This document shows positions 9,726-59,643 of a stretch of 64,000 nucleotides of DNA, piece by piece. The DNA lies in contig CALXND010000001.1 in assembly GCA_944389655.1 (NCBI GenBank), positions 954 through 64,953 on the forward strand, in the 5' to 3' direction. Within the stretch, counting starts at the first letter, position 1. Each line of letters opens with the position of its first letter. The position numbers were made by a program, and so were the translations under genes. The stretch is from an uncultured Clostridia bacterium. Its GTDB lineage: Bacteria; Bacillota; Clostridia; TANB77; CAG-508. Under the pieces are notes generated by a model that saw only the letters and a program-made list of their open reading frames with translations, was not told the DNA's origin and made no database searches.

Positions 9726-9829
9726 GTGAGCAAAAGGGGTCAGACCCTAATTGCGCAAAAAAGCTTGTATCTCTTGCTATTACTGTATTATAGCATTTGC
9801 GCAATTAGGGTCTGACCCCTTTTGCTCAC
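9726..9829. repeat. Extended copy of the GC-rich palindrome family: two 34-bp perfect inverted arms (gtgagcaaaaggggtcagaccctaattgcgcaaa / tttgcgcaattagggtctgaccccttttgctcac) flanking a 36-bp spacer
   Basis: Read directly from the sequence. Each arm is itself related to the TTGCGCAAATGGGGTCAGACCCCATTTGCGCAA unit found elsewhere in the window. Confidence 0.85.
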
Positions 9830-9830
9830 T

Positions 9831-10493
9831 TTAAAAGATTATTCCACTTCCATAATCGTGAATTTCTAACCCTTTAAAGTCTATTAAATTCAAATTGTAT
9901 TTTTTTAAGTGCTCACAAATTTTTTCTCTATTGTTTAATTTTGAACCATCTCCAAATAATACAAAGTTATTGTCAAATACTAATGTTGCGCCACCTATAA
10001 AGCCATGCATTTTTGATTCTTCTCCACTTTTTTGAAGCAATTTTATATTGTTCTCTTCTACATATAAAGCATCAATGCCATTGGCTCTTAATACTTTTTC
10101 TATTCCCTTATCTGATGTTATACATGAGTTACTACTTGTTATTGCTATTGAACATTTTACATAGCCTTGTTTTACTAAAATATTAGGTTTTATGCTTTTA
10201 TCTGTATAATCGCTTCCTATTATATTATTTCCTATTTGGCAACAATTATATTTAACATCTTTTGGATATTCTTTTCCTACATTTTCTTGCCCCATTTTAA
10301 AAGAACTATTTTTATATGGAGCATTTGGTGCTGATATAATTTTATTATTTATTTTGCAATAAAATATATCACTATGGCCAGATATTTCTTCGTACACATC
10401 ATCTGATAATGGTAATTTTACTATATTAAAGTGTTTACTTAAATAATTATATTCTTTTTCTCTTATTCGTGTGTCTATTATTAAATTATTCAC
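9831..10493 (-). CDS. Hypothetical protein, 220 aa
   Basis: Uninterrupted ORF ending 2 bp from the palindromic element. No confident family assignment. Confidence 0.5.
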   Translation of the reverse strand: MNNLIIDTRIREKEYNYLSKHFNIVKLPLSDDVYEEISGHSDIFYCKINNKIISAPNAPYKNSSFKMGQENVGKEYPKDVKYNCCQIGNNIIGSDYTDKSIKPNILVKQGYVKCSIAITSSNSCITSDKGIEKVLRANGIDALYVEENNIKLLQKSGEESKMHGFIGGATLVFDNNFVLFGDGSKLNNREKICEHLKKYNLNLIDFKGLEIHDYGSGIIF

Positions 10494-10565
10494 TTTTATC
10501 GTTCCTTTTCAAAGTATTAAATTCTTTTATCTTAAAAAATCCAGATACAAGTAAATTAAACAACA

Positions 10566-11240
10566 TTAAACTCCTGCATTTCCACTTAGCATAAGTCCAG
10601 CATACGCTGTTGAATATTCTGCTGTTATTTCTTTTACAATTTGTTTTTCTTCTTCCATTAAGTTTCGACCTAGATGAGACATTCTCTTATCTAATTTATG
10701 TGTCATTTTAGCACATTCTTTAAGTTCTTTTTTTACACCTTTTGGAATTTGTTTATTATATTTATAATTAATTTTGTGTTCTAAGCTTGCCCAAAAATCC
10801 ATCGCCATTGTTCTTATTTGAATTTCTACCTTTACCTCAATTGTTCCTACTGATAAACTTACAGGAACAGATAATATTAAGTGGTAACTAGAGTATCCAC
10901 TTTCCTTTGGTGTTGTAACATAATCTTTCTTTTTTAGTATGGTAAGATCTGGCATGTTTTCTAGCATTTCTACTATTTTAAATATATCTGGTATAAATGA
11001 GCATATTATCCTTATACCTGCAACATCATTAATAGTTTTTACTAAGTTTTCGTATGTTGGGTCTAAACCTTTCTTTTTTAGCTTTTTGTTAATACTTTCT
11101 TTGCTCTTAATTCTACTACTTACATGTTCTATTGGATTGTATTTATGTAGTGTTTTAAATTCGTTATTTATAATATCTATTTTTGTTTCCATTTGTTTTA
11201 ACGCAGCTGTATACATAAGTGTAAGTCTCTTATATTCCAT
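10566..11240 (-). CDS. relQ: Small alarmone synthetase (RelA/SpoT-domain GTP pyrophosphokinase, RelQ/YjbM-like), 224 aa
   Basis: Synthetase-domain motifs GIRIICSF, EIQIRTMAMDFWASLEHKINYKY and a C-terminal helix, at the size of single-domain SAS proteins. Confidence 0.8.
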   Translation of the reverse strand: MEYKRLTLMYTAALKQMETKIDIINNEFKTLHKYNPIEHVSSRIKSKESINKKLKKKGLDPTYENLVKTINDVAGIRIICSFIPDIFKIVEMLENMPDLTILKKKDYVTTPKESGYSSYHLILSVPVSLSVGTIEVKVEIQIRTMAMDFWASLEHKINYKYNKQIPKGVKKELKECAKMTHKLDKRMSHLGRNLMEEEKQIVKEITAEYSTAYAGLMLSGNAGV

Positions 11241-11403
11241 ATCTTCTTGCAGTTTATCTTCCTTTTTAACTACTATATCTTCTATGGCTAATCAACTCCC
11301 TTCGTATATATTTATACACCACTTTTATGTCCATTATGTGTAAATTTGCTGTTTATTTAAAGTTTTTATATTTTTTAATTCATGACTTATAAAGTTTTAT
11401 ACT

Positions 11404-11594
11404 AGTCATAGTTAATATATTTAAAATTTGTTTCAAATATGTCGGTCAAGATGATTTTCAAACTAATTCTAAAGAAATTTTTGCAGCGCCCTCAACAAAC
11501 TTGAGATTCCCTACAAAAATTTCTCAAGAATTAGTATTTTCAAATCACATTCCATTCCATATTCTCACAAATTTTAAATATATTAACTATGACT
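11404..11594. mobile_element. MITE-like element, copy 1 (191 bp, 27-bp perfect TIRs agtcatagttaatatatttaaaatttg / caaattttaaatatattaactatgact)
   Basis: Same element found at 28274..28469 (inverted orientation) and 60433..60622. It has a conserved GC-rich core, ttgcagcgccctca...gattccctacaaaaatttctcaagaattagta. Confidence 0.75.
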
Positions 11595-11631
11595 TTAGCT
11601 AAAGGAACTTTGTAAGTCGTGGATTTTAGTA

Positions 11632-12816
11632 TTAAAACGTATCTTCTAAATTTTTCTCTTTTAATTTATTGTTTGTGTTTTCTTCAATTATCGCATACAA
11701 AATTGAAACTACTGGAAGTCCTACAATCATACCCATTATGCCAAATAAGCTTCCTCCAATTGTAATTGCAACCAGCACCCAAATGCTTGGAAGACCAATA
11801 TTTTTTCCTACAACATGTGGATAAATTAGGTTTCCTTCTACTTGTTGAAGTACTATTATAAATAAAATAAATATTAATGCTTTAATTGGGTCGATTGCTA
11901 CTATTAGTACTGCACCAATAAATCCAGATATAAATGCTCCAACTATTGGAATAAATGCTGTTATTGCAGTAAGTGCTCCTATTGGCCCTGCATATGGAAT
12001 TCCTAAAATAAACATACCTATAGCACATAGTGAGCCTAGTATTACTGCTTCTTTTGCTTGCCCTGTTAAAAAGCTTCTAAATGAATCTCTAGCAAGTCTG
12101 CTAACTTTTATAATATAGTCTGCTTTTTCTTTTGTGCAACGCGCATATATAAATTTCTTTGCTTGCAATTTTAGATTTTCCTTATTTGCTAAAATATATA
12201 CTGCAAATATTATTGATATAAAGAAGTTTACAATATTTGATAATAGGCTAGATACTTGGTTTATTGTGATATTTAATACATCTTTAGATAAATTCATTAT
12301 TCCATTTTTTAATGCTTCTGTATCTATATGTATATTTTGTATAAAATTATTTATATCTGGAAATCTTTGCGTAATATCAATTGCAAAATTTTTGGCATCT
12401 TCTAAAAAATTTGGTATATTGCTTATTAAGTTTTTTATAACCTCTACAAATTGTGGAATTATTAATACTAAAATTATAGTTATTACAGCTATTATTGTAA
12501 TTATTGAAAGTGCTATAGAAAATGGTCTTTTTATTTTGTTTGTTCTTGTTACATTACTTTTTCCATCTGGTTTTACAGTTTTAGAGCTTTTATCGGCGTT
12601 TTTCTTTCTTGACTTGAATATTTTGTTTTCATATATGCTCATAAATATATTTAAAATAAATGCTATTGCTAATCCCCATATAAACGGAGAAATAATGTTT
12701 AGGAACTCTTTTACGCCTCCCCATACTGGACCAATGTTTAAAAGTGCTACTAATAAAACTATAGCTATTACAACAATTTTTATAATTTGCTTTGTATTTT
12801 CTTTATCTAGCTTCAT
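11632..12816 (-). CDS. AI-2E family transporter (PerM/UPF0118-type permease), 394 aa
   Basis: Polytopic membrane protein with the family's large cytoplasmic loop (KENLKLQAKKFIYARCTKEKADYIIKVSRLARDSFRSFLTGQAKEAVILG). Confidence 0.8.
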   Translation of the reverse strand: MKLDKENTKQIIKIVVIAIVLLVALLNIGPVWGGVKEFLNIISPFIWGLAIAFILNIFMSIYENKIFKSRKKNADKSSKTVKPDGKSNVTRTNKIKRPFSIALSIITIIAVITIILVLIIPQFVEVIKNLISNIPNFLEDAKNFAIDITQRFPDINNFIQNIHIDTEALKNGIMNLSKDVLNITINQVSSLLSNIVNFFISIIFAVYILANKENLKLQAKKFIYARCTKEKADYIIKVSRLARDSFRSFLTGQAKEAVILGSLCAIGMFILGIPYAGPIGALTAITAFIPIVGAFISGFIGAVLIVAIDPIKALIFILFIIVLQQVEGNLIYPHVVGKNIGLPSIWVLVAITIGGSLFGIMGMIVGLPVVSILYAIIEENTNNKLKEKNLEDTF

Positions 12817-12833
12817 AATCTACATACTCCTTT

Positions 12834-14276: not shown

Positions 14277-14394
14277 ATTTGCCTCCTTTGCTATATTTGC
14301 GATTATACCATATTGTATGTTAAATGGCAAATGTGTTCAAAATGCAATAAAAATCGCCAAAATTAGCTAATAAATAGTTTTATATTCTTCTGTA

Positions 14395-14631
14395 GACCAA
14401 AGCTGTATGGTTTTTATAAAATGTAGTAATTTTCATTTAAGCCAAATATTATATGATTTTTATTTTTGATTGGAGTGCTTAAGGTGGGGACCGACAAGTT
14501 TACAAACTGTTATACGAGGATATTTCCGAGTATTTACAGTTTGTACGCAGTTGGGGGCCGGAAATCAAAAATCAAAATTATATAATATTTGGCTTAATAA
14601 ACATATTTAATAGAACCATACAGCTTTGGTC
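14395..14631. repeat. Large nested palindromic element: 18-bp perfect outer IRs (gaccaaagctgtatggtt / aaccatacagctttggtc), ~70-bp near-perfect inner arms, ~90-bp GC-rich core (ggagtgcttaaggtggggacc...cagtttgtacgcagttgggggcc)
   Basis: Read from the sequence. The core is about 85% identical to the reverse complement of 30480..30575, and a partial arm copy occurs at 18499..18560. Confidence 0.8.
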
Positions 14632-14651
14632 GGCTTTTAAAGTTTTAACCA

Positions 14652-16952: not shown

Positions 16953-17060
16953 TTATATTTAGCCTCCTTTCGTGTTAATTAAATTTATATGTTTACTTAA
17001 CATTATCCTTTCAGCATAGAGATTTACAACTGACTTATGTAATTATTAAAAGTAATTTTC

Positions 17061-17267: not shown

Positions 17268-17311
17268 TTTTACCTCCATTCGAGCTGATTTAGCTCCTTT
17301 ACCTAATAACC

Positions 17312-17346
17312 TTTGCGCAAATGGGGTCTGACCCCATTTGCGCAAA
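17312..17346. repeat. GC-rich palindrome copy (tttgcgcaaatggggtctgaccccatttgcgcaaa)
   Basis: Perfect 35-bp palindrome between the flavodoxin-like gene end and the copZ start. Likely terminator hairpin on either strand. Confidence 0.9.
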
Positions 17347-17348
17347 TA

Positions 17349-17984: not shown

Positions 17985-18614
17985 TTTGACTCCTTTCTTT
18001 AATCATTGATTACTTTTTTAGATTTTAATTTGCAATTCATTTTCTAGTATTAAATGAATTGCAATTGGTTACAGTATAATGGTTTTAGGACCAGCAAAGT
18101 ACAAAAAACTTGAAAAATATACATATACTTTGCTTTAATTTTGTTATTAAATACCACTATCCTGTAACTGCAATTATTTTTACCTTTTTAATTATATTTA
18201 TTAACCCTTGTATTAATGTTACAATTTATTGTTGAATTTTTCCTTTACAGTTATTATTTTAATGATTTAATTGCTTTTACAGTATTATATCAAATACAAT
18301 CAAATAACAACTTACAGTTACTATTTGCTACTGATGCGCTTAATTCAGATTTTCTTTCGCAACTTGATTTATCATATTAGCATAGTCTTTTAATTTTTCA
18401 TCTAACCTCGTTTGGCACTTTACAAATACTTTAACTAATTTGCTTACATCATCTGTAGTCTGTGCATAATATAATGCTTCTTTATATTCTTTATTGTACT
18501 CATTATCTTATTTGGCTTAATAAACATATTTATTAAAACCATACAGCTTTGGTCTATAGAAGAATATAAAACCATTATATTGTAACTGTTTTTCTATTAA
18601 AACTTTAATTCGTA

Positions 18615-23041: not shown

Positions 23042-23056
23042 AGTTGGTCTCCTCTT

Positions 23057-25980: not shown

Positions 25981-26012
25981 TTGCGCAAATGGGGTCAGAC
26001 CCCATTTGCGCA
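25981..26012. repeat. GC-rich palindrome copy (ttgcgcaaatggggtcagaccccatttgcgca)
   Basis: Perfect palindrome read from the sequence, lying between two minus-strand genes. Confidence 0.9.
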
Positions 26013-26014
26013 TT

Positions 26015-27166
26015 TTATCTAATTTTCCTTACTAACTCAGTCATTTGAGCCATGTTTTCTTCTTTTAATCTTGATTTAATTGTTACCATTGGCTCTATTA
26101 TTCCTATATCTTTCATTTCGCCTAATATGTTTTTCATCGTTCGTCCAGCTGATGGCGCCCACGAACCGTTTTCTATTATTCCTACTTTTCTTTTTTGGTA
26201 ATTTCTTTCTTTTAATCTATTTAAAAATTGTTCCATAGGCGGAAATACTCCTGCATTATAACTTGAGGCTGCAAGTATTAGTTTTGGAAATCTAAATGCA
26301 TTTGCAACTGCTTCTGCCCAGTCATCTTTTGTAAGGTCACATACTATTACATTTTTTTCGCCTTTTTCTTTTAACATTTCCGCTAATACATTTGCTGCAT
26401 CTAATGTATTACCATATATTGAACTGACTGCTATTAATGTTCCTTCTTCTTCTGGCTCATAGCTACTCCATTTATTGTATTTATCTATGTAATATGCTGA
26501 ATTTTCTTTTAATATTGGCCCATGAAGCGGACATATCATTTTTATATCAAGTGTTTTTGCTTTATTTAGTAAAGCTTGTACTTGCATTCCATATTTTCCT
26601 ACAATTCCTATATAGTATCTTCTTGCTTCTGTTATCCAATCATCTTCTATTTCTAATGAGCCAAATTTTCCAAATGCATCTGCCGTAAATAATATTTTTT
26701 CTGTTTGCTCATATGTTACCATTACTTCTGGCCAATGAACCATAGGTGCCATAAAGAACTGCAAAGTATGTGTTCCAAGGTTTAAAGTATCACCTTCTTG
26801 TACAACGATTTTTCTTGCTTCAATATCTATATCAAAAAAGTTTGACAATATATTAAATGTAAATTGATTTCCTACAATTTTCATGTTTGGATATTTTTTA
26901 GCAAGCAATCCTATATTATATGCATGGTCTGGCTCCATGTGTGATACTATAAGATAATCTAGTTCTTCTCCATTTAGCGTTTCATCTAATTTTTTTAACC
27001 ACAATTCCGTTACTCCCTCATCAACTGTGTCTAAAATAGCATTTTTTTCATCTTTTATAACATATGAGTTATAGCTCATCCCATTTTTTATATTATATTG
27101 GCTCTCGAATATTTTTTGCTTATTATTACTCGCACCAATCCAGATTATATCATTAGAAATTTCCAT
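26015..27166 (-). CDS. Flavodiiron protein (metallo-beta-lactamase-like diiron domain plus flavodoxin domain; FprA/rubredoxin-oxygen oxidoreductase type), 383 aa
   Basis: Contains the SHMEPDH diiron ligand motif and a C-terminal flavodoxin-like domain, at typical FDP length. Confidence 0.85.
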   Translation of the reverse strand: MEISNDIIWIGASNNKQKIFESQYNIKNGMSYNSYVIKDEKNAILDTVDEGVTELWLKKLDETLNGEELDYLIVSHMEPDHAYNIGLLAKKYPNMKIVGNQFTFNILSNFFDIDIEARKIVVQEGDTLNLGTHTLQFFMAPMVHWPEVMVTYEQTEKILFTADAFGKFGSLEIEDDWITEARRYYIGIVGKYGMQVQALLNKAKTLDIKMICPLHGPILKENSAYYIDKYNKWSSYEPEEEGTLIAVSSIYGNTLDAANVLAEMLKEKGEKNVIVCDLTKDDWAEAVANAFRFPKLILAASSYNAGVFPPMEQFLNRLKERNYQKRKVGIIENGSWAPSAGRTMKNILGEMKDIGIIEPMVTIKSRLKEENMAQMTELVRKIR

Positions 27167-28134: not shown

Positions 28135-28273
28135 ATGTTATCACCTCAATTTCTGCGAATTGTACTCTTTATTTAATAATACTACTATTTCTTGCTTTTT
28201 TCCATCATTTATTCTAAATTAAATCTTACATTTTGGTAAGATGTTACAATTCACGGTCATTTCTATTTAGCAT

Positions 28274-28469
28274 AGTCAGAATTAATTTATTCAAAATTTG
28301 TGAAAATATGGAATAGAATATGATTTGAGAATACTAATTCTTTAAAAATTCTTGTAGGGAATCTCGTGCTTTGCCGTGAGGGGCGCCACAAAAATTTCTT
28401 TAGAATTAGTACGAAAATCAGCTTGACCGACATATTTGAAACAATATTTTTAATATATTAATTCTGACT
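28274..28469. mobile_element. MITE-like element, copy 2 (inverted orientation relative to copy 1)
   Basis: TIRs agtcagaattaatttattcaaaatttg ... tatttttaatatattaattctgact. The core is the reverse complement of the 11404..11594 core. Confidence 0.7.
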
Positions 28470-28516
28470 TTATACCAAAACTTTATTGGGCGGTAAATTG
28501 TAACAGTAAGACTTTT

Positions 28517-30393: not shown

Positions 30394-30646
30394 TTGCGCT
30401 GGTTGGGGGACTTAGCTTATTTTGCGCAATCTTCATCATATTTTAAATGTTAATTTATATATTTTTTCTTTTTAGTCTTCGGCCCCCAGCATCGTACAAA
30501 CTGTAAAATTCCACTAACGTGTATTTAACAGTTTGTAAACTTGCTGGTCCCCACCTTAAGCACTCCGACTAAAAATAAAAAATATATAAATTAACTAAAA
30601 ATTCAAATAATATTTGCGCAAAATAAGCCCGTCGCCAACCAGCGCA
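30394..30646. repeat. Composite palindromic element inside the ABC/TCS operon: outer IRs ttgcgctggttggggg.../...ccaaccagcgca enclosing a copy of the GC-rich core shared with 14395..14631
   Basis: Left arm ttgcgctggttgggggacttagcttattttgcgcaa, right arm ttgcgcaaaataagcccgtcgccaaccagcgca. The internal segment cttcggcccccagcatcgtacaaactgtaaaa...cttgctggtccccaccttaagcactcc is the reverse complement of the 14470..14560 core. Confidence 0.8.
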
Positions 30647-33284: not shown

Positions 33285-33397
33285 CTGCGCAATTGGGGAC
33301 GGGCTTGTTTTGCGCAAGTTTAGTTATGTTTATAATTATAAATTTACTATAAAATAATAATATTTGCGCAAAACAAGCCCGTCCCCAATTGCGCAAA
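33285..33397. repeat. Palindrome-family variant pair (ctgcgcaattggggacgggcttgttttgcgcaa ... ttgcgcaaaacaagcccgtccccaattgcgcaaa) flanking a 46-bp AT-rich spacer
   Basis: Perfect 33-bp inverted arms read from the sequence. Confidence 0.85.
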
Positions 33398-33435: not shown

Positions 33436-33467
33436 TTGCGCAAATAGGGTCTGACCCTATTTGCGCA
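33436..33467. repeat. GC-rich palindrome copy (ttgcgcaaatagggtctgaccctatttgcgca)
   Basis: Perfect palindrome, a variant of the family consensus (tagggtctgaccctat). Confidence 0.9.
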
Positions 33468-34122
33468 TTTTTCCGTCCTCTATTTCTATGACTCTATCTG
33501 CTATTTTTGCAATTTCTATATTATGTGTAATCATAATAATAGTTTGCTTATATTCTTTGTTAGATTTTTTTAATAAATTTATTATTTCGTCACTTGATTT
33601 TGAATCTAAATTTCCTGTTGGTTCATCGGCTAGTATTATGCTTGGGTTTGTAATTATTGCTCTTCCAATTGATGTTCGTTGTTGTTGTCCACCAGAAAGT
33701 TCATTTGGTAAATGCTTCCTCCTTGTTTCTAATCCAAGTGTTTTTAATAAATTATTTAATTCTTGTTTATCCACTTTTCTATTATCTAAATCACAAGGAA
33801 GAGTTATATTTTCCTCTACATTTAATATTGGAATTAAATTATAGAATTGATATATTAACCCCACTTGTCTTCTCCTAAAAATTGCTAAATTATCGTCATT
33901 CATTTTGTATATATCTTTGCCATCTATAAATACTTTTCCACTGGTTGGCCTATCTACACCTCCAATTAAATGTAGTAGTGTGGACTTTCCACTTCCACTT
34001 GCTCCAACTATCGCAACAAACTCTCCTTTGTCTACTGTAAATGAGATGTTGTCTATTGCAACTACTTTAGATTCGTCTTTTCCATATACTTTAGTTAAAT
34101 TCTCTACTCTTAGTATTTCCAT
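33457..34122 (-). CDS. ABC transporter ATP-binding protein (partner of the 30647..33268 permease), about 221 aa
   Basis: Walker A GASGSGKST, LSGGQQQR signature and Walker B ILADEPTGNLD. The track start is a GTG; ATG MEILRV with AAAGGGTG upstream is preferred. Confidence 0.9.
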   Translation of the reverse strand: MEILRVENLTKVYGKDESKVVAIDNISFTVDKGEFVAIVGASGSGKSTLLHLIGGVDRPTSGKVFIDGKDIYKMNDDNLAIFRRRQVGLIYQFYNLIPILNVEENITLPCDLDNRKVDKQELNNLLKTLGLETRRKHLPNELSGGQQQRTSIGRAIITNPSIILADEPTGNLDSKSSDEIINLLKKSNKEYKQTIIMITHNIEIAKIADRVIEIEDGKMRK

Positions 34123-34140
34123 ACGTTTCACCCTTTCTTA

Positions 34141-34170
34141 GTGCAATTGGGGACTGTCCCCAATTGCACT
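34141..34170. repeat. 30-bp perfect palindrome gtgcaattggggactgtccccaattgcac (palindrome-family variant)
   Basis: Read from the sequence, immediately upstream of the ABC ATPase start. Confidence 0.85.
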
Positions 34171-36199: not shown

Positions 36200-36282
36200 A
36201 TTGCTAAAATTAAGCAGCTTCGAGCAGCTTTGTTTTATGTATACATAAAGATAAATTGGGATCTGTCCCCAATTTATCATCT

Positions 36283-37059
36283 TTAACCTAGTGCTACATC
36301 CAAAATCATCATTATAACAAACCCTATTGCCACTCCTATTGTGCCAATATCTGTATGTTCTCCTTCTTGAGCCTCTGGTATTAACTCTTCTACTACAACA
36401 TAAATCATTGCGCCTGCTGCAAATGACAATATATATGGTAGTATTGGCAAAATAGTACTTGTAATTAGTATAGTAATAATTGCCCCTATTGGCTCTACTA
36501 TTCCAGATAGCATTCCATATATAAATGCTTTTGGTTTAGATACACCCTCTGCTCGTAAAGGCATTGAAATAATTGCTCCTTCTGGAAAGTTTTGTATTGC
36601 TATACCTATTGATAATGCCAATGCCCCTGCAAATGTTATACTGGTGCTTCCTGTCATCATTCCTGCCAAAACTACTCCCACTGCCATTCCCTCTGGAATG
36701 TTATGTAGTGTTACTGCAAAAACCATCATTGTAGAGTTTTTTAGTTTTGCTTTTAGTCCCTCTGGCTTAGTTGTTTTCATATGTAAGTGCGGTATAATAT
36801 GGTCCAGCATGAGCAAAAATAATATTCCTATAGAGAAACCTAATGCAGATGGAATCCACGCTACATGTCCTTGTTCTTCCGCCATGTCCATGGCTGGTAT
36901 TAAAAGTGACCATATTGATGCTGCCATCATTACTCCTGCTGCAAATCCTAATAGTAACTTTTCTATTTTTTTATTTATTTCCTTTTTCATAAAAAATACC
37001 ATTGCGGAACCAAGTGTGGTTCCTAAAAAAGGAATTAGTAGACCTAGTGCTATGTTCAT
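36283..37059 (-). CDS. zupT: ZIP-family divalent metal transporter (ZupT-like), 258 aa
   Basis: Eight-TM profile with the conserved HNIPEG (LHNIPEGMAVG) and NFPEGA motifs. Confidence 0.85.
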   Translation of the reverse strand: MNIALGLLIPFLGTTLGSAMVFFMKKEINKKIEKLLLGFAAGVMMAASIWSLLIPAMDMAEEQGHVAWIPSALGFSIGILFLLMLDHIIPHLHMKTTKPEGLKAKLKNSTMMVFAVTLHNIPEGMAVGVVLAGMMTGSTSITFAGALALSIGIAIQNFPEGAIISMPLRAEGVSKPKAFIYGMLSGIVEPIGAIITILITSTILPILPYILSFAAGAMIYVVVEELIPEAQEGEHTDIGTIGVAIGFVIMMILDVALG

Positions 37060-39622: not shown

Positions 39623-39821
39623 TTTCTAATCCCAATCCTTTCCTAAATTGTATGTTACGATTCACAGCCTATTTCTTAAAGCTACTCCAAATATTATATT
39701 TCTCTTAAGTAGTTCCACGTGTATTCATCTAACAGCAAGGGAAAGCGGATTTTGTATAGATTATTTTTAATTAGATGTGAATTGTAACCGTTCCTTTTTT
39801 AGCCTAGATAATATATGTTTT

Positions 39822-40728
39822 TTATTCTCGTATTACTTTTATTGCCTCTGGTAAGCATCTTACTGTGTCCGATGCTATCATACTTATATCTGTATATTTT
39901 TTCTCAGCTATTTCTCCTGCTAGTCCATTAATATATGCTCCTGCTGATATAGTAAGTAAGTCCGCCTCATCAAAGCCAAGAAGCCCCACCAAAATACCTG
40001 ATAGTACATCTCCGCTTCCTGCTGTTGCCATTCCACTACAACCGTCTCTTTACTAAATATACTGTTTTGCCATCTGTTATAACCGTTGTAGGACCTTTTA
40101 AAAGCAATATGATATTATATTCTTTTGCAAATCCCCTTGCTATATTTATTTCATTTCCTTTAATACCTTCTATTTTTATTTTGCTTAGTCTCTCAAATTC
40201 TTTTAAGTGCGGAGTAAGAATTACTTTGCATTTGGTACTTTTAAGAATATTCATATTCATTCTAGCCAAAGTATTTAAACCATCGGCATCTATTACAACT
40301 GGCAGATTATAGTTTGTTAAAATATATTGTAATATCTTTTCATATTCTTTGCTTTCTCCCCAGCCCATTCCTATTGCAAGTGCCTTTAACTTATTTAGTG
40401 CCTTATCTATTTGTTTATCTACAAATTGCATTTTGCCATCTTTATCATCGATGGTAAACATGGTTTGTTCTAGCAAATATGGTGCTACTATATTTGAAAT
40501 TTCTTTTGGTACAATAAGTCTTGTTACTCCACAACCTGCTCTCATTGATGCTGCACTTAAATTTGCAAGTTTTACTGCTCCTGAATATTCTAAAGAGCCT
40601 CCCATTATGCCAATGTACCCATAATCTCCCTTGTTAGTATCACTTAATCTTTGTTTAAATTTACTTTTTAAGTCTTTTGCTTCTATTTCGTATACGCCAT
40701 CACTTATAGTCTTCATTATAAAATTCAT
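39822..40728 (-). pseudogene. nnr: NAD(P)H-hydrate dehydratase (YjeF C-terminal/Nnr2 carbohydrate-kinase family) split by a +/-1 frameshift at 40031-40040
   Basis: The upstream ORF (GDYGYIGIMGGSLEYSGAVKLA ... VITDGKTVYLVKRRL*) and the downstream 69-aa ORF (MATAGSGDVLSGILVGLL, the conserved C-terminal motif) are one gene. The two frames join if one A is removed from the run in gtaaagagacgg, giving ...VYLVRDGCSGMATAGSGD. The N-terminal start is uncertain; it is set after the overlap with the upstream gene. Confidence 0.65.
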
Positions 40729-40822
40729 TCCTTTCTCGCTTTGCTCAAAGGCACACATAGTTATAAAAGAATGTTCTTTCAAACTAAAGCCCCTTTCGTT
40801 TGACCTAGTTTTATTCTTATTA

Positions 40823-43054
40823 CTAATTTTCATCTTTGCTACTGTCTTGTTTTGTTTTCTTTTGAATAAATTTTTCAAATTCTTCTTTTTTTATTGGTTT
40901 TGAGTAATAATACCCTTGTATTATATCACATTCTCTTTCTAGTAAATAATCTCGTTGTTCTTTTGTTTCAACTCCTTCTGCGATTGTAGTTAATTTTAAT
41001 TCTTTTGCAATTGTTAATATATAGTCTACAATGTTTTTATCATTTTTTCCAATTTTATCTATAAAAGATTTATCTATTTTTAAAATGTCAGCAGGCATGT
41101 CTTGAATTGTGCTTAGTGAAGAATAGCCTGTTCCAAAATCGTCTATTGAAATTTTAAACCCTAATTTTTTCATCTTATTCATTATTCCAATTATATCGAT
41201 TCCATCTTCTATAGTAGCACTTTCGGTAATCTCTAAATCTATATTATTTGGATTAATATTATATTTAGCTGCAATCATTCTATATTTTTCCAAAAAATGT
41301 TCATCTAAAAAGTGTTCTCTGGATACATTTACAGATATAGTTATTTCATCTCCATATTTTTCTTTCCATATTTTCATATCACTGCATACCTGCTCAAAAA
41401 TATACACATCTAATTTTAATATAAACTTATTCTTCTCGAATATTGGAATAAATTCATTTGGAGGAATCATTTTTCCATTATGCTTCCATCTTACTAATGC
41501 CTCGGCACCATATAAGGTCTCATCATTAGTATAAATTTGGGGCTGGTAGTATACTATAAACTCCTTTTTCATTAAAGCTTGATACATTTCATTTTCTATT
41601 TCGCTTTCTTTTTCTAATTTCTGCTCCATTTTTTTGTCATATATATGAAATTTATCATACACATCGCCTTTTGATGCCGAATGTGCAATAATTGCCTTAT
41701 CCATTATTTCTGAAATATTAGCATCGCTTTCTGTTAGTTGGTATACCCCCATATTTACTGAAAGATTATATACATTGTTTTCAATTCTAAGATTTTCGAT
41801 ATTTTTAACTATCTTTTTTAAAATTTCTCTTATTTTCTCATCATACTCAAATAAGCTGGCAAAATAATCATTTGAATATCTGCATATTAGGCTGTTTTCT
41901 CCTAATATTTCTTGAAGCTTTTCTGCTATTCCTTTTAGAATGTCGTCTCCCACTTTATATCCATATGCTTTATTTATCATTTTAAATTTGTTTATGTCTA
42001 GTACCAAAATGTATTGATTGCTCTTCACACCCTTTTCTAGAATTTCCTGACCTGTTTTTCTAAAGTAATAAATATTGCCTTTGCCTGTTACTGGGTCTAT
42101 ATACGCATATTCAAAGAGTTTTTTCTGCTTTTTGTTATTTTCAATTACTATATAAATGCAAATTGCTAAAATGATAAATATTACAATTACAGCTGCAATA
42201 AAAGTTGTAAGAAGCGCTTTGTTTGCTTCCCCTGCTATGGCTTTAGCAGGAATAAATGTAACTATTGTCCAATCGTTTGCTCCAATTGGTTCATACACCA
42301 TATAATAATTTCCATTTGTAGTTTGAAGTGTTCTTGTCCCTGATACACCGTTTTTTATATTCTCTTCTACAACATTTTTATTTGTTATAAATCTTTCCTT
42401 TGAGCCACCAGCAAGCATTCGCTCTATATTATTTATTAAATTTCCAGTACCTTTATTGGTATTTGCTGATACAACTATATTTCCGGCTGTATCTACAATA
42501 TAACTAAATCCTTTCCCCTCAAATATCTTATTTGAAAATATATTTTTGTATGAATCTGTCTTAACAATTAAAAGAATTGCTATTTTTTGTTTTTTTAGTT
42601 CTATAGCTTGTGAATATATATTAATTTCTTGTCCATCTATTTTACTTATTTTATTCTCTGAAATATGAATTTCATTATTTGAAAAAAAGTTGTCCTTTTC
42701 ATCTAAGTAATTTACTTCGTGCCCATCATTTGTTATTGTTCGTCCATCCTCATACATTATTGCCATTCTTATAAAATGGCTTGTGATATCGCTTCTTTCG
42801 TACATATCAAATATTTTTTCAGGATTTACAATATTGTCCATTATAATTTCATTTGTAACAGATTGTAAAATTGCTTTCTGCTCTGTTATCTCTGTCTTTA
42901 AATTACTTGCATCGTTTTTGACAATAGTTTCTATACTATTGTTACTATTTGCTTCTATTTTCTCTAGCATGTATGTCATATACGCTATACCTATAGCTAC
43001 TAAAATAAGAAATATAATAATTATTAAAATAATTTGTTTCTTGTTATCCTTCAT
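40823..43054 (-). CDS. Signalling protein with N-terminal TM, Cache-like periplasmic sensor, degenerate GGDEF domain (RYSNDYF in place of GGDEF) and EAL phosphodiesterase domain, 743 aa
   Basis: EAL motifs (YGAEALVRW, DDFGTGYSSL, KIDKSFI) are present. The GGDEF signature is replaced by SNDYF, so the protein is predicted to be a c-di-GMP phosphodiesterase. Confidence 0.85.
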   Translation of the reverse strand: MKDNKKQIILIIIIFLILVAIGIAYMTYMLEKIEANSNNSIETIVKNDASNLKTEITEQKAILQSVTNEIIMDNIVNPEKIFDMYERSDITSHFIRMAIMYEDGRTITNDGHEVNYLDEKDNFFSNNEIHISENKISKIDGQEINIYSQAIELKKQKIAILLIVKTDSYKNIFSNKIFEGKGFSYIVDTAGNIVVSANTNKGTGNLINNIERMLAGGSKERFITNKNVVEENIKNGVSGTRTLQTTNGNYYMVYEPIGANDWTIVTFIPAKAIAGEANKALLTTFIAAVIVIFIILAICIYIVIENNKKQKKLFEYAYIDPVTGKGNIYYFRKTGQEILEKGVKSNQYILVLDINKFKMINKAYGYKVGDDILKGIAEKLQEILGENSLICRYSNDYFASLFEYDEKIREILKKIVKNIENLRIENNVYNLSVNMGVYQLTESDANISEIMDKAIIAHSASKGDVYDKFHIYDKKMEQKLEKESEIENEMYQALMKKEFIVYYQPQIYTNDETLYGAEALVRWKHNGKMIPPNEFIPIFEKNKFILKLDVYIFEQVCSDMKIWKEKYGDEITISVNVSREHFLDEHFLEKYRMIAAKYNINPNNIDLEITESATIEDGIDIIGIMNKMKKLGFKISIDDFGTGYSSLSTIQDMPADILKIDKSFIDKIGKNDKNIVDYILTIAKELKLTTIAEGVETKEQRDYLLERECDIIQGYYYSKPIKKEEFEKFIQKKTKQDSSKDEN

Positions 43055-43066: not shown

Positions 43067-43097
43067 ATGCGCAATTGGGGACGGGTTTATTTTGCGC
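43067..43097. repeat. Palindrome-family variant (tgcgcaattggggacgggtttattttgcgca)
   Basis: Related to the 33285..33317 arm, upstream of the GGDEF-EAL gene. Confidence 0.8.
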
Positions 43098-43217
43098 AGT
43101 TTTATTCAAATATTTTTAATTAATTCGTAATATTTTTAATAATGTAATTTTTAATTTAAAGAGAAGTTAGTTTAGCTTATAATTTTATATTGAATCAGGT
43201 AATGCAGTAATATCTAA

Positions 43218-44087
43218 CTAAACGCGAGTTTTTGCGCAAAAGGGGGCTGACCCCATTTGCGCAAATTTTTCCATGTCTCTTCTTCCTTCTTCATATAACT
43301 TTCTTAGTTTCTCTTTATCTTTTTCAAGCCTTGATACAGTTACAGGTACTTCTGGTGCCACAACAAATATTCTACCTTGTTTTTCTAGCTCATTTATGTG
43401 TTCTTTTAGTGCGTTATATCTTTCTGGCATGGTACATAATTTTTCTACTAGTTTTGGGTATTTATGGTAGACTCTTTTATATACTCTTTTCATTGTATTT
43501 GATATTTCTGGCTTTCTATAGTTTCTATCTCGTGTAAGTACTACTAAAATGTTCTTATGACCTTGCTTTATTGCCCAATCTACTGGTATTGGCATTGTTA
43601 TTGCTCCATCTAGATAGTGGTTGTTCCCTATTTTTACCATTTTTGAGCAAAGTGGCATGCTTGATGATGCTTGCACTACTTTGAATATATCTCCTCTACA
43701 TTCATTTTTTTCTACGTATTCTGTAGTTCCTTTTTCACAATTTGTTATTACTGAAATGAATTTTTGCTTTGATTCTTTAAATGTATCATAGTTAAACGGA
43801 TTATCTTCTTTTGAGATTTTATTAAATAGATAATCATAGCCTATTAATCCGCCTTCTTTTCTAAGGGCTTTTAGCCCTATATATCTAGGATTGTCACAGT
43901 ATTCTATGTTTATATCTTTACTTCTGCTTTGTTGTTTTGATATGTAATTCATCCCTGTGAGCGCTCCTGCTGATACTCCTAGTACATAATTGGCCTCTAT
44001 TTTATATTTCATTAATACGTCTAATACTCCTGAGGTGTATACGCTTCTTAATGCTCCACCTTCTAATATTAATGTTAGTTCTTGCAT
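43218..44087 (-). CDS. Patatin-like phospholipase, 289 aa (C-terminal ~15 codons encoded by a palindromic repeat)
   Basis: Oxyanion hole GGALRS and nucleophile elbow GVSAGA (G-x-S-x-G). The stop codon lies inside the palindrome at 43231..43265. Confidence 0.8.
   Translation of the reverse strand: MQELTLILEGGALRSVYTSGVLDVLMKYKIEANYVLGVSAGALTGMNYISKQQSRSKDINIEYCDNPRYIGLKALRKEGGLIGYDYLFNKISKEDNPFNYDTFKESKQKFISVITNCEKGTTEYVEKNECRGDIFKVVQASSSMPLCSKMVKIGNNHYLDGAITMPIPVDWAIKQGHKNILVVLTRDRNYRKPEISNTMKRVYKRVYHKYPKLVEKLCTMPERYNALKEHINELEKQGRIFVVAPEVPVTVSRLEKDKEKLRKLYEEGRRDMEKFAQMGSAPFCAKTRV
43231..43265. repeat. GC-rich palindrome copy (tttgcgcaaaagggggctgaccccatttgcgcaaa)
   Basis: Near-perfect palindrome read from the sequence. 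Confidence 0.9.
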
Positions 44088-44942: not shown

Positions 44943-44951
44943 TAGGTAATA

Positions 44952-45503
44952 TTACAAAGTCCTAGCTACCTTGCATGGATTTCCATAAGCAATAGAATTA
45001 GCTGGTATGCTTTTGGTTACTACACTGCCTGCCCCTATTGTGCAATTGTCACCTATTGCAACTCCTGGAAGGATTGTTACATTTCCACCAATCCATACAT
45101 TATTGCCAATTTTTACTGGGCTTGCATATTCTAATCCTTTATTTCTTTGGACTACATCTATAGGATGATGTGCTGTATAAATTCCGCAATTTGGAGCTAT
45201 AAATACATTGTTTCCTATTATTACTTTAGCAGCATCAAGAATAATAAGATTATGATTAGAATAAAAATTCTCCCCTATTTCTATATTATATCCATAGTCA
45301 CACATGAATGGCTGTTCTATTAAAAAATTTTTTCCTATTTTTCCTACTATTCCTCTTATTAAAGCTGCCCTTTCTTCCATCTTAGATGGTCGTATATTAT
45401 TATAATCAAAGCATAAATCTTGTGCCTTAATCATTTCTGCCCTTAACTCTTCATCATAATTTGGATTGTATATTTCCCCATTTTCTCTTTTTTGCTTTTC
45501 TGT
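44952..45503 (-). CDS. maa: Sugar O-acetyltransferase (maltose/galactoside acetyltransferase family, hexapeptide-repeat), 183 aa
   Basis: Left-handed beta-helix hexapeptide repeats (IGNNVFIAPNCGIY...IGNNVWIGGNVTILPGVAIGDNCTIGAGSVV). Start is set at MTEKQK with GGAGG 6 nt upstream. Confidence 0.85.
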   Translation of the reverse strand, partial: TEKQKRENGEIYNPNYDEELRAEMIKAQDLCFDYNNIRPSKMEERAALIRGIVGKIGKNFLIEQPFMCDYGYNIEIGENFYSNHNLIILDAAKVIIGNNVFIAPNCGIYTAHHPIDVVQRNKGLEYASPVKIGNNVWIGGNVTILPGVAIGDNCTIGAGSVVTKSIPANSIAYGNPCKVARTL

Positions 45504-51854: not shown

Positions 51855-52008
51855 TGATATTTTTATCTATTATATCAAATGTAGTAAAGTCTATCTATAT
51901 TTTGGGCAAAAACTTAATATAATGTAATATATTTATTATAATTTTAAACTCTAAAACGTAAAAAGCAGAACTTTATTGTGTTCTGCCTCTTTACTTATAT
52001 ATTTTGCT

Positions 52009-54630: not shown

Positions 54631-54827
54631 ATTTACATCGTTCCTTTCTCTAGGCTTGAATTTGCTTAATTCTTCCTATTATATCTTTTGCATTTTTTAA
54701 CATTTTATACTGCTTTTGTAAATTTTTTCTATAATTATTATATATGTAAGTCTTCAAATTGTAAATAAAAAATGTTAAGAAATTTTATATTTTAAGTATA
54801 TAAAATTAATTTTTCGAATCATTAAAG

Positions 54828-55017
54828 TTATCCACAGACAAAATTCTCATTTTTTGTATAATTTTATATAAAACTTCTCTTTATAAGTTACTTTTTGACA
54901 TTATGTTACATTATTATTCGATTTTTTTAAATAAAATTTATCCACATATATGTGGATAATGTGGATAACTCTGTGAATAACTATAAACAGTGGGTTTGGT
55001 TTTCAAAGTTATCCACA
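54828..55017. promoter_or_regulatory. Cluster of six DnaA boxes (five perfect TTATCCACA/TGTGGATAA, one TGTGAATAA) upstream of ppdK and downstream of polC
   Basis: Boxes at 54828-54836, 54938-54946, 54951-54959, 54960-54968, 54972-54980 (one mismatch) and 55009-55017. An AT-rich tract lies at 54900-54937. Read directly from the sequence. Confidence 0.65.
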
Positions 55018-55102
55018 TTAATATTTGCAATTTTTTATGAAAACTGCTTATTTTGTTACTTTTTGTTTTGTTAAAGGCATTATGTAATTTTCTGTCGAAA
55101 AC

Positions 55103-55135
55103 TGCGCAAAAGGGGTCTGACCCCATTTGCGCAAA
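55103..55135. repeat. GC-rich palindrome copy (tgcgcaaaaggggtctgaccccatttgcgcaaa) immediately downstream of polC
   Basis: Near-perfect palindrome read from the sequence. Confidence 0.9.
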
Positions 55136-58100: not shown

Positions 58101-59524
58101 ACCTCTCCATTTTTTATTTTCATTACTCCAATTTCAGTTATTTTTTCTGTTCTAAATGAAAAACCTGTTGTCTCCAAATCAAGTACACAATATGTAGTAT
58201 CTATTTCCTGTCCTTTTGGGAATGATACAACTGGAGTTCTATCTGGTGCTAAATATGCTTCAACTCCATAAATAACTTTTAAATCTGGATGGTCTTTTTC
58301 CAAATATTTATGCGCTTCTGGAAAAGCTTGTACAACTCCATGGTCAGTTATTGCAATTGATTTCATTCCCCATTTTACCGCTCTTTTTAATAGGTCTGTA
58401 GCAGATGTCATTCCATCCATTTGGCTCATCTGTGTGTGCATATGAAGCTCTACTCTCTTTTCTTTCGCATTATCCATTCTAATTTGCTTCTTTAATCCTG
58501 TACTTTCAATTATTACATTTGCTATTACGCCTAACTCTTTAGCAAATGGGTCAAATTGCGCTGTACCTTCTAGTTTTATTCCTTTTGCGCCCTTTAACCT
58601 TTTTATTAAATCCTTTGATTTGTCTCCTTCCGAAAATGCCTTACAGGTAATTGTACTTGAACCATCATACAAATCAAACATTACAAGTACTTTTCCACTT
58701 TTTAACTCTCGCGAATCTATATTCAATATTTCTCCATCAAGTTGAACTTTTCCACTATCCACACTTAAATCTGCAATTTTTACTAATTGTTCTTTTAATT
58801 TTAAGCTTCTGCCAAAAATTAAAGGAGAGGCTTCTTGCTCTTTTTCATTTGTAGGCATTTCTATCGAAACACTTACTTCTCCAGAATTATTTACCTGAAC
58901 CTTACTCTTGTCGCCAGATTGTTCTTTTGATTCTACATCTCTGTTTGCTATTTCGGCTACTTCACCTGCTTGCTCTGCTTCTCTTTGTGCTTGCATAATT
59001 GCTTCTCTTTCAAGGTTAATTGCATGTTCCATATATTGTTTTACAGCTTCTTCTGTAATATTTTCAATAAAAATAATTTTGTATTTTAGGCCATATATAT
59101 CCTCTATAATTTTAGATAGTATTTTATCAAAGCCCTTTGCTTCTATAACCATCTTACCTTTCATAGCCATATTTACAATTATTTTATCACCTTCTATTTC
59201 AATATTACTATTCTTTAAAAAAGCTTTACTAAGAGGGTGTTTATGCGCCATATAGCAAATTACAAGATTCCATTCTTTTTTTATGTCTACATCAATTGGT
59301 TTTGAATACTCTACTTTTATATTTACTTCAAATATATTAAACCTATTTTTTAAATACTGCTCAAATTTGTATATATCTTCTATTTTTATAAAATCATCTG
59401 CTGTTATAATTAATTCTAGTTTATTCGTTTTTTTAAACAAATTTATTGATTTTATCTTACTTGCATTCAAAGAAAAACTATTTGAATCATAGTCTTTAAA
59501 AATTTCTTTTATTGTTTTATCCAT
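55136..59524 (-). CDS. polC: DNA polymerase III PolC-type (Gram-positive replicative polymerase), 1462 aa
   Basis: Length and domain order fit PolC: OB domain, PHP domain, inserted DEDDh 3'-5' exonuclease (YCVLDLETTG, HNADFD) and polymerase core. Confidence 0.95.
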   Translation of the reverse strand: MDKTIKEIFKDYDSNSFSLNASKIKSINLFKKTNKLELIITADDFIKIEDIYKFEQYLKNRFNIFEVNIKVEYSKPIDVDIKKEWNLVICYMAHKHPLSKAFLKNSNIEIEGDKIIVNMAMKGKMVIEAKGFDKILSKIIEDIYGLKYKIIFIENITEEAVKQYMEHAINLEREAIMQAQREAEQAGEVAEIANRDVESKEQSGDKSKVQVNNSGEVSVSIEMPTNEKEQEASPLIFGRSLKLKEQLVKIADLSVDSGKVQLDGEILNIDSRELKSGKVLVMFDLYDGSSTITCKAFSEGDKSKDLIKRLKGAKGIKLEGTAQFDPFAKELGVIANVIIESTGLKKQIRMDNAKEKRVELHMHTQMSQMDGMTSATDLLKRAVKWGMKSIAITDHGVVQAFPEAHKYLEKDHPDLKVIYGVEAYLAPDRTPVVSFPKGQEIDTTYCVLDLETTGFSFRTEKITEIGVMKIKNGEVLEEFSCFVNPEKPIPQRVVEVTNITDDMVKDAETIETVFPKLMDFLGDSVLVAHNADFDIGFLKYNAKQLGYNLDNTYLDTLRLSKELFPDYKKYKLGIIAENLGIKVEVAHRALDDVDTTVKVFNVMINMLKEKGAKKIEDIDKLCAGKTDFRRLPTYHAIILAQNYVGLKNLYKLISYSHLDYFYKKPRILKSLYKKYSEGLILGSACEAGELYRAIVAGKTDEEIDAIASDYDYLEIQPLGNNMFMVRNGTVADVKGLEDINKKIVEIGDKLGKPVVATCDVHFMDPQDEIYRRILMAGQGYDDADEQAPLYLRTTEEMLKEFEYLGEEKAYEVVVTNTNKISDMCEKISPISPEKCPPHIDGCEQTIKDIAYKKAHELYGDPLPDLVEERLSKELDSIIKNGFSVMYIIAQKLVWKSNEDGYIVGSRGSVGSSFAAYATGITEVNSLPPHYRCPQCKYSDFTDYSYACGFDLPDKNCPKCGTKMVKDGIDIPFETFLGFNGDKEPDIDLNFSGEYQAKAHRYTEVIFGKGTTFKAGTVGTVADKTAYGYVKKYYEERGIPVNNAEVLRIAQGCTGIKRTTGQHPGGIIVVPKGREIYEFCPVQHPADDPNSDIITTHFDYHSIDQNLLKLDILGHDDPTMIRMLYDITGIDPTKVPLDDKETMSIFSSTDALGVTPEQIKSKVGSYGIPEFGTKFVRGMLVDTKPTTFDELIRISGLSHGTDVWLNNAQSLIEEGTVTLNEAICCRDDIMIYLIKKGVPPNKAFKIMETVRKGKALKDPEKWAEFVGIMKEHDVPEWYIKSCEKIKYMFPKAHAAAYVTNAFRIAWFKVHKPEAYYAAYFTIRADEFDSDIMCYGKEKVINKMKEIDLAGNSATTKDKNMYAILELVLEMYERGIKFLPIDLYKSHATKFLVEEEGIRPPLNSIPGLGTVAAEGIDTAKQDGKFMSIDDMKIRSKIGKSVIELLDRVGCLKGMSQSNQMSLFG

Positions 59525-59544
59525 TTGTTAATTTGCCCCCTTAT

Positions 59545-59643
59545 TTGCGCTGGTTGAGGGCAGACTTATTTTGCATAACCTTCATCATGTTTTTAATTGT
59601 TAATTTATATATGAGCAAAACAAGCACATCCTCAACCAGCGCA
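59545..59643. repeat. Palindromic element between polC and rseP (ttgcgctggttgagggcagacttattttgca ... gagcaaaacaagcacatcctcaaccagcgca), same architecture as 30394..30646 without the large core
   Basis: Outer inverted repeats tgcgctggttgagg / cctcaaccagcgca read from the sequence. Confidence 0.75.

Follow-up and report, generated by a model that had tools for sequence, protein, structure and literature searches.

What are the GC-rich palindromes that stand at gene ends in an otherwise AT-rich piece of bacterial DNA, and what do they do there? The stretch in question is the 64 kb of contig CALXND010000001.1 analysed here (the window, 29% GC). Its palindromes had been noticed from the sequence and likened to the repetitive extragenic palindromic (REP) sequences and bacterial interspersed mosaic elements (BIMEs) of other bacteria, and this original prediction saw them as probable bidirectional terminators or mRNA stabilisers. 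We suggest that they are lineage-specific repeats of a REP-like kind, which resemble in part the REPINs (REP doublets forming hairpins), and that they have been tolerated or co-opted as non-terminating hairpins between the cistrons of an mRNA, acting as terminators only where a U-tract follows. We give this reading a probability of about 0.55. Copy counts below cover the window, while related loci, labelled with L-numbers as are matching contigs, were compared separately. A set of 17 distinct elements, made up of the window copies and of copies or variants at the L-loci, was used for the flanks and for the counts of U- and A-tracts. The sense or mRNA strand is the - strand of the window.

A family of palindromic singlets and doublets

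The family is built from a 33-nt unit, TTGCGCAA-N17-TTGCGCAA, with the apex GGGGWCNGWCCCC (GGGGWC-N-GWCCCC). It is present in 16 copies at 10 loci, with none expected by chance. The consensus palindrome, allowing at most three mismatches, matches at 17313, 25981, 33436, 43232 and 55102, and nowhere in 100 shuffles; the matches are found on both strands because the consensus is itself palindromic. The half-site TGCGCAAWWRGGG, with at most one mismatch, has 18 matches against 0.27 expected, and the one at 45032, inside a gene, is probably due to chance. The hexamer TGCGCA is seven-fold over-represented (23 occurrences, 3.3 expected), and 20 of these lie within elements, as do all 14 occurrences of the octamer TTGCGCAA. 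An inverted-repeat scan found every perfect arm of 15-17 bp with its single central base, together with both doubled copies (9723-9832 and 33286-33395), and a profile built from nine units recovers all copies and the 34140 and 36250 variants, besides weak copies from other species. The variant cores of the family are GTGCAATTGGGGWCNGWCCCCAATTGCAC and TGAGCCAATGGGGAC. The dispersed, near-identical palindromes of the original prediction are thus real, including the doubled copy at 9723-9832, and so are the variants that it listed, which the scan and the profile place at 33286-33395, 34140-34170, 36250-36278 and 43068-43098.

Structurally, the units exist as singlets and as doublets, see Table 1. 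The singlets E2, E3, E4a, E7a and E8 are near-perfect palindromes of the form TTGCGCAAATGGGGTC-N-GACCCCATTTGCGCAA, and these five, at unrelated loci, have 28-32 of 33 positions in common. Their apex, AATTGGGGAC-A-GTCCCCAATT, is kept in the variants E5 and E6. The four doublets (E1, E4, E9 and E10) consist of two units in inverted orientation with an AT-rich spacer between them, and are 98-110 bp long, except for E10, in whose loop an unrelated repeat is nested. Each doublet arm is a poor palindrome alone, yet it is 89-100% complementary to its partner arm; across loci, the arms have 22-29 of 33 positions in common. E9 and E10 form a subfamily, in which the outer stem TGCGCTGGTTG/CAACCAGCGCA replaces TGCGCAATTG/CAATTGCGCA and the spacer sequence is also common. 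The original list of copies stands, but the inverted form of about 110 bp had not been recognised in it, and the elements at 30395-30646 and 59546-59643 are added here.

The predicted RNA folds reach -23 to -29 kcal/mol for the singlets and -39 to -72 kcal/mol for the doublets, whose stems are 34-40 bp long, and the z-scores of the predicted hairpins range from -5 to -14. Folds and repeat statistics agree with a REP- or BIME-like family of stable hairpins, as had been proposed. It also holds that every copy is either intergenic or reaches into the final codons of a gene, the latter in the ABC ATPase and the patatin-like gene.

The family was not found in the collections searched. In Rfam 15, the whole window has no match at the gathering threshold, and a literature sequence search with the core strings of the family returned nothing relevant. 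When the E4 region was searched with blastn against plasmids and phages, only chance matches to the AT-rich spacer appeared. A scan of species-representative genomes (the host is not among them), JGI metagenomes and viral contigs, using the degenerate palindrome GCGCAANNNGGGNCNGNCCCNNNTTGCGC alone, gave only 12 single matches, all in DNA of 53-76% GC, which look like unrelated terminators. Unrelated high-GC Coriobacteriia and metagenome contigs (L002, L005, L008 and L011) also contain lone hairpins of the form GCGCAAAAGGGGTCTGACCCCTTTTGCGC. The recurrence of the apex GGGGWCNGWCCCC in them may reflect a favoured, stable hairpin apex rather than homology.

Recent expansion and relation to known repeats

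The nearest DNA to the window comes from gut-type metagenome assemblies in ENA and Logan. Contigs collinear with the window encode an FprA-like protein with 96-100% identity and belong to the same species, while in other species of the group the identity is 81-91% for PolC and about 77% for FprA. PolC and sortases are present and a gene for a small acid-soluble spore protein is called on a same-species contig; the host is a low-GC Firmicute, probably spore-forming. Nearly all genes of the window lie on the - strand, including pyrH-frr-uppS-cdsA-rseP-polC, ppdK, a bceAB-RS-like module, copZ-copA, metK and uvrB; on the + strand, both GC skew and AT skew are strongly negative.

Comparison of orthologous junctions reveals filled and empty sites. 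In L023-L026 the bceA-bceB and bceB-bceR junctions measure 32 and 30 nt and are empty, while in the window they measure 188 nt (E4 and E4a) and 269 nt (E10); the Bce proteins at these junctions have 72-93% identity to the L023-type orthologues. The rseP-polC junction carries a doublet in the window and in L013 (PolC 91%), and is an empty 52-nt spacer in L035 (PolC 85%). At the position of E8, L035 has an unrelated canonical terminator. L027 contains compact copies past metK and past ABC-F, two places where the window has none, L024 contains a decayed copy, and L015 a further doublet variant (TGAGCCAATGGGGAC...) past polC. The window has 16 units in its 64 kb; in five related species, stretches of 16-45 kb contain 0-2.

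Changes are also seen between strains. Strains L017-L022 have A as the central base of E3 (25997), where the window and L016 have T, and this is the sole change in E3 among strains. The central base of E2 (17329) changes from A to T in strain L022. Both testable elements thus flip at the centre, within flanks that are 98-100% identical. Such a flip is what inversion of the palindrome would yield, through template switching or cruciform processing, but it could also be mutation of an unconstrained loop. In L017, the left arm of E4 carries a 25-nt tandem duplication bounded by direct repeats of TTGCGCAA. E6 is replaced in L018 by a different hairpin with a related apex, and the right arm of E10 has two changes between the window and L022, in a region that is otherwise 99.6-100% identical. 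In L016 and L030, which come from the same ENA scaffold, a run of about 100 N stands exactly at the E6 region (equivalent to 36200-36295 of the window), and the palindromes seem to break short-read assemblies.

The empty orthologous junctions, the copies elsewhere in relatives, and the centre flips and the 25-nt duplication among strains show a recent repeat prone to turnover. The family is young: its expansion is recent and specific to one species, orthologous junctions have gained, lost or exchanged copies, and the elements are a hot spot of palindrome-specific change (centre flips and slippage). The presence/absence differences for which a comparison of related strains had been proposed are seen between species, as empty junctions in L023 and L035 and as extra copies in L027, and strains differ by flips, duplication and replacement. 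Since centre flips, duplications and hairpin replacement tell close strains apart, the palindromes may serve as strain-typing markers.

The family is a new member of a kind already known, the small dispersed palindromic repeats, which are well studied in Proteobacteria. Some of its traits are unusual: the Firmicute host, the perfect singlets, the centre flips and the tight placement at operon junctions. It is a Firmicute case of recent, species-specific expansion of such repeats, in an uncultured gut bacterium. The REP, BIME and REPIN sequences of E. coli and Pseudomonas (PMC3337134, PMC3116915, PMC3733652) are likewise dispersed extragenic palindromes of 20-40 nt that often adjoin or supply stop codons, and stop codons supplied by REP ends are known (PMC3733652). 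REPINs, named in Pseudomonas, are defined by two REPs in inverted orientation that fold into one hairpin (PMC3337134), and inverted doublets that fold into a hairpin of about 90-110 nt are found here in E1, E4, E9, E10, L013 and L015. Species-specific content and fast turnover are also shared with REP sequences, whose known roles as stabilisers of mRNA 3' ends fit the positions seen here. The host is different, being a low-GC Firmicute; a 2013 survey of tagged REPs found them in eight phyla, and Firmicutes are not named among these (PMC3733652).

The Correia/NEMIS elements of Neisseria and the RUP, BOX, ERIC and EFAR families, which are miniature inverted-repeat transposable elements (MITEs), are also similar. 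They are non-coding, about 100-150 bp long, have terminal inverted repeats, lie next to genes, are co-transcribed and form long duplexes, and they share with the present family the presence or absence in strains and the nested insertions. RNase III cleaves the Correia elements (cited in PMC3733652). The 98-110-bp doublets carry inverted arms of 33-45 nt, a MITE-like feature, while the 33-nt singlets lack such terminal repeats and are far smaller than MITEs. In addition, each inverted repeat is here itself a palindrome, and Correia elements duplicate TA on insertion. The window encodes a single transposase, an IS110-family one (5876-7147; PF01548). This family has no matching inverted repeats, the flanks of the element do not contain the motif, and no parent IS whose inverted repeats match those of the doublets was found in the DNA covered.

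From stop codon to ribosome-binding site

The position of the elements is strongly biased. Eight of the ten loci lie in junctions where the residual spacer, with the element removed, is at most 60 nt, and such spacers make up 3.8% of the intergenic nucleotides (p = 2e-10 per nucleotide, 0.017 per junction). An element starts 0-7 nt past the upstream stop codon, or overlaps it, and 13-23 nt separate the end of the stem from the downstream ATG, exactly 17 nt in E4, E5, E10, L013 and L027a. The Shine-Dalgarno (SD) sequence stands directly outside the stem and is sequestered in no case. Where a junction is minimal, contact with both the stop codon and the SD is forced; in long intergenic regions, E8, E5 and L015 still adjoin a gene boundary. 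Association with gene 3' ends, as originally claimed, is therefore one half of the picture: the elements do adjoin stop codons, but equally the SD of the next gene.

This placement also disturbs gene calling, as the original prediction had pointed out. The TTG starts of the longest open reading frames (ORFs) of copZ, of a gene for an 86-residue protein (the 86-aa gene) and of the permease fall inside palindromes, while the gene calls for these three on same-species contigs use downstream ATG starts with a ribosome-binding site (RBS). The ABC ATPase ends in ...EDGKMRK before its stop here and in ...EDGKIIREN in a relative that lacks the element; therefore, the palindrome E4a encodes the last residues and the stop codon. 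Annotators should be aware that such palindromes yield false TTG or ATG starts, false small ORFs, altered C-termini and the appearance of a terminator on the wrong strand.

By the usual criterion for a U-tract, 5 U or more among the first 8 nt past the stem in the mRNA, only 4 of the 17 elements have one: E1, E6 and the variants in L015 and L018. E8 has a weak one (4 U); ten of eleven other elements have at most 2 U, and E2 has four scattered T. The U-tract copies stand at operon ends or between convergent genes, and U-tracts are absent from operon-internal copies (Fisher p ~0.001, a post hoc comparison). On the other side, at least 5 A are found in the 8 nt upstream (sense) of 10 of the 17 elements, which is where an antisense transcript would need its U-tract, and AAAA directly 5' of the stem in 8 of the 17, against about 0.5-2 expected. 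Examples of these A-runs are 26013-26018, 33468-33474 and 59644-59649 in the window, 14350-14361 in L015 and 1043-1052 in L027. The excess is larger than the A-rich local composition predicts, and it could be a target preference, a part of the element, or the result of selection for antisense termination.

Signals at the RNA level can also be detected. When 11 compact copies, drawn from three species-level groups, are compared, both partners vary in 8 of the 16 stem pairs, and 90% of the cells are paired; 0 of 500 shuffles reach these values, and in shifted registers pairing drops to 23-47%. Between L013 and E9, there are three double substitutions in the outer stem. Among the imperfect pairs of the elements, the mismatches of transition type divide 12:3 between G:U on the mRNA strand and G:U on the antisense strand. 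To these come the three stem polymorphisms between strains, each of which allows a wobble pair in the mRNA, for a total of 15:3 (p ~0.004, one-sided, against 50:50; ~0.03 against a mutational bias of 60:40).

Stable stem-loops between cistrons are known as stabilising or processing sites, for example the REP sequence between malE and malF of E. coli, the cggR-gapA junction of B. subtilis and the RNase III sites of phage T7. These are similar in having a stable stem between the end of one cistron and the next SD, which is left free; they are single, evolved sites, however, while here a repeated family is involved. We suggest that the palindromic family recently colonised the transcribed gaps between stop codon and RBS of co-directional genes. 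The surviving operon-internal copies would be read through by RNA polymerase because they have no 3' U-tract. A compact hairpin could then form a barrier to 3'-5' exonucleases that protects the upstream cistron, or, after cleavage, a 5' stem on the downstream one. The 34-40-bp duplexes of the doublets could be substrates of RNase III, uncoupling the flanking cistrons, and the copies with a U-tract, at operon ends and between convergent genes, may serve as terminators. Spread of the family could have occurred by hairpin-dependent single-strand transposition, mediated by a REP-associated tyrosine transposase (RAYT) or an IS200/IS605-like enzyme, or by template switching. The filled and empty versions of the same operon junction provide natural material on the effect of a very stable intercistronic hairpin on a polycistronic mRNA.

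The idea of general bidirectional terminators, which would end transcription of the upstream gene on either strand, has some merit, as the stems are GC-rich and stand right behind stop codons, E1, E6, L015 and L018 carry both a 5' A-tract and a 3' U-tract, and E8 is the only hairpin past polC apart from a palindrome of DnaA boxes. We nevertheless regard this role, part of the original prediction, as improbable for the family as a whole. Most copies are operon-internal without a U-tract, and those at the bceA/bceB/bceR, rseP/polC and FprA/86-aa junctions and in L027 run into a purine-rich SD and not into U. Their stems of 14-40 bp are near-identical across loci, while the ordinary terminators of this genome and its relatives have AT-rich stems and clear U-tracts and are unrelated to the family. 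Even less probable, in our view, is a dedicated role on the other strand, where the hairpin with its sense 5' A-run would stop head-on RNA polymerase and so limit pervasive antisense transcription. The A-runs described above fit this, and a consensus scan does call + strand terminators at 25982, 33437 and 34140, but much of the A enrichment is local composition, as the spacers between stop and SD are 50-60% A on the sense strand in this lineage and TAA stops add to it, and the A-run at E4a already exists in the orthologous coding sequence of L023 (GGAAAGAT). We consider it very improbable that a dimeric DNA-binding protein uses the elements as operators, reading palindromic TTGCGCAA octamers 25 bp apart. 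The octamer is kept at both ends of type-B arms that have lost their interior palindromy, and E5 lies directly downstream of a -10-like motif; however, the octamer never occurs alone, and the variants GTGCAATT, TGCGCTGG, TGAGCCAA and GATAAATT replace it with the stem kept. Further, most copies stand between a stop codon and an SD and not at promoters, the adjacent genes are functionally unrelated and form no coherent regulon, and an identity of 91-97% across 33 nt is what repeats typically show and regulon sites do not. The protein-binding half-site that had been proposed is thus not upheld.

The strongest competitor, although we still think it unlikely, is that the palindromes are nothing but selfish or neutral DNA, spread and homogenised by DNA-level processes (hairpin-dependent transposition, template switching or gene conversion) and kept in the gaps between stop and RBS only because insertion there is harmless, with no role in RNA. 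Species-specific expansion with empty orthologous sites, decaying copies (L024, E6 and E7R), hairpins whose mutation between strains is no slower than that of their flanks, and centre flips and slippage typical of palindrome instability would all be expected. Also the perfect arm-to-arm identity of E1, in spite of imperfect pairing within each arm, fits templated copying. Against it speak the 15:3 excess of G:U-compatible mismatches on the mRNA strand and the U-tracts that are present at operon ends and missing in operon-internal copies; the strong enrichment at tight junctions also points away from it, though this could be a filter of survivorship. It can further be speculated that the family is a RAYT-independent, REPIN-like system of Firmicutes. 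Its active unit would be the perfect 33-nt palindrome, inverting in place, so that its centre base flips between strains, and targeted to A-rich junctions of stop and RBS, and it would be silent for sense transcription, a terminator for head-on antisense transcription and a processing site of operon mRNA; this combination appears distinctly unlikely to us, though a little less so than general bidirectional termination.

Several observations weigh against the co-opted REP-like repeats that we favour. Known REPs carry a conserved unpaired tetranucleotide, GTAG or CGTC, at one end (PMC3733652), and in the flanks of the 17 elements no such tag is consistent; the single GTAG in a flank (L027b) is a stop codon, and CGTC is internal only, at the apex of type-B arms. 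Neither the ORFs of the window nor the genes called in about 250 kb of related loci include a Y1 transposase (RAYT or IS200/IS605-like). In the REPIN model, doublets should be better conserved, with singlets as decaying remnants; here the singlets vary less than the doublets do. Because the end tag and a RAYT gene are absent from the DNA examined and the singlets are the more uniform form, membership of the RAYT-REP system is unproven. The flanks of the elements also show no consistent target-site duplication, only isolated possible ones (TAAGA at E5, AATAA at E9 and AAA at E3). On the RNA side, the hairpins are not better conserved than their flanks between strains, the covariation is expected in a DNA palindrome anyway and does not separate selection on RNA from templated correction of DNA, and the G:U bias could partly stem from strand-biased C>T mutation. 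Rather than function, the enrichment at tight junctions could show that the elements prefer A-rich or purine-rich targets. Co-transcription, processing and stabilisation are all inferred from sequence, and the copy number rests on the part of the genome sampled, about 72 kb of DNA of this species. A search with the IS110 transposase for further DNA of the genome returned only the same contig.

Coordinates and other features of the window

Table 1. Palindromic elements of the window, in order of position. Folds are predictions for the RNA.
Element	Position	Strand	Form	Setting	Predicted fold (kcal/mol)
E1	9723-9832	-	110-bp doublet; 37-nt arms, 100% complementary; 36-nt AT-rich loop with TGCTATAAT	1 nt 3' of the DUF6873 gene stop; followed by UUUUUAUUU	-72.1 (z -13.5)
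E2	17312-17346	-	singlet, perfect 17-bp palindrome	3 nt past the FMN-reductase stop, ahead of copZ	-29.4
E3	25982-26012	-	singlet	2 nt past the flavo-diiron (FprA-like) stop; 23 nt ahead of the ATG of the 86-aa gene	-24.9
E10	30395-30646	-	doublet, TGCGCTGGTTG subfamily; unrelated MITE-like insert of ~150 bp nested in loop	directly past the permease stop; 17 nt ahead of the response-regulator ATG	
E4	33286-33395	-	110-bp doublet, arms TGCGCAATTGGGGACGGGCTTGTTTTGCGCAA and complement; 45-nt arms, 89% complementary	17 nt before the permease ATG	-71.4 (z -14)
E4a	33437-33467	-	singlet; TAG stop within an ATAGGG variant, mirrored by CCCTAT on the other arm	overlaps the ABC ATPase stop and the 3-4 codons before it	
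E5	34140-34170	-	compact variant GTGCAATTGGGGACAGTCCCCAATTGCAC	ABC ATPase leader, 17-18 nt before the ATG; TGTATAAT motif upstream of the element	-23.9
E6	36250-36278	-	degenerate variant GATAAATTGGGGACAGATCCCAATTTATC plus UUU, terminator-like	between convergent genes	
E7R	43068-43098	-	single type-B arm CTGCGCAAAATAAACCCGTCCCCAATTGCGCA	GGDEF-EAL gene, 13 nt ahead of its ATG	-7.8 (alone; weak, not significant)
E7a	43231-43265	-	singlet	inside the 3' end of the patatin-like gene; encodes ...FAQMGSAPFCAK, the last ~14 residues, past the Pfam domain end (residue 275)	
E8	55103-55133	-	singlet; tail GUUUUCGAC, a weak U-tract	2 nt past the polC stop, in a 505-nt intergenic region	-23.5
E9	59546-59643	-	doublet, TGCGCTGGTTG subfamily; spacer homologous to that of E10	fills the rseP-polC junction; begins 2 nt past the stop, ends 21 nt ahead of the ATG	-39.4

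Some further roles were considered for individual elements and rejected. Promoters are not a general feature of the doublet loops: a TGnTATAAT can be seen by eye in E1 only, where a consensus scan finds no full -35/-10 pair, and promoter-like matches in the region are no commoner than in shuffles. In the operator sites of CsoR and CopY, a C-run precedes a G-run; the element upstream of copZ has these in the opposite order and is not such a site. Integron attC sites can be dismissed too, as the flanking genes are housekeeping genes and there are no R'/R'' core sites.

Two other repeat families are present. A second, unrelated MITE-like family of about 250-300 bp occurs in three intergenic regions (11436-11605, 28135-28516 and 60465-60633), with copies that are 92-97% identical and contain 25-nt internal inverted repeats (ACTAATTCTAAAGAAATTTTTGCAG...). 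A third family (14331-14651, 18504-18554 and 30440-30570) has ends that contain ACCAAAGCTGTATGGTT, and a GC-rich inner hairpin (GGTGGGGACC...GGGGGCC); one copy of its inner part is nested, in inverted orientation, in the loop of E10.

The intergenic region between polC and ppdK contains, at 54828-55017, five perfect DnaA boxes (TTATCCACA) in 190 nt, out of seven in the window, and a palindrome is formed by two of the five. L035 (PolC 85%) has similar boxes past its polC, at 14560-14600. This is probably a box cluster or regulatory site and not oriC, as the cumulative GC skew does not turn there.

The 5' end of uvrB is duplicated, with 1772-2058 and 7704-7990 being 78% identical and about 5.9 kb apart, and a second direct repeat is found just inside (2180-2230 and 7555-7605). 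The insert that these two pairs of repeats bracket (2053-7700) encodes the IS110-family transposase, a protein of 748 residues and an ORF of 114 residues. In L023 and L026, an N-terminal fragment of uvrB lies a few kb from genes of conjugative elements. The duplicated fragment around the insert and these fragments in relatives make the start of uvrB look like a hot spot of integration.

Finally, the carbohydrate-kinase (PF01256) gene at 39623-40878 seems to be split or frameshifted, with coding-like sequence running through a nominally intergenic stretch of 413 nt. On a same-species contig, there are two adjacent PF01256 calls, of 265 and 69 residues.

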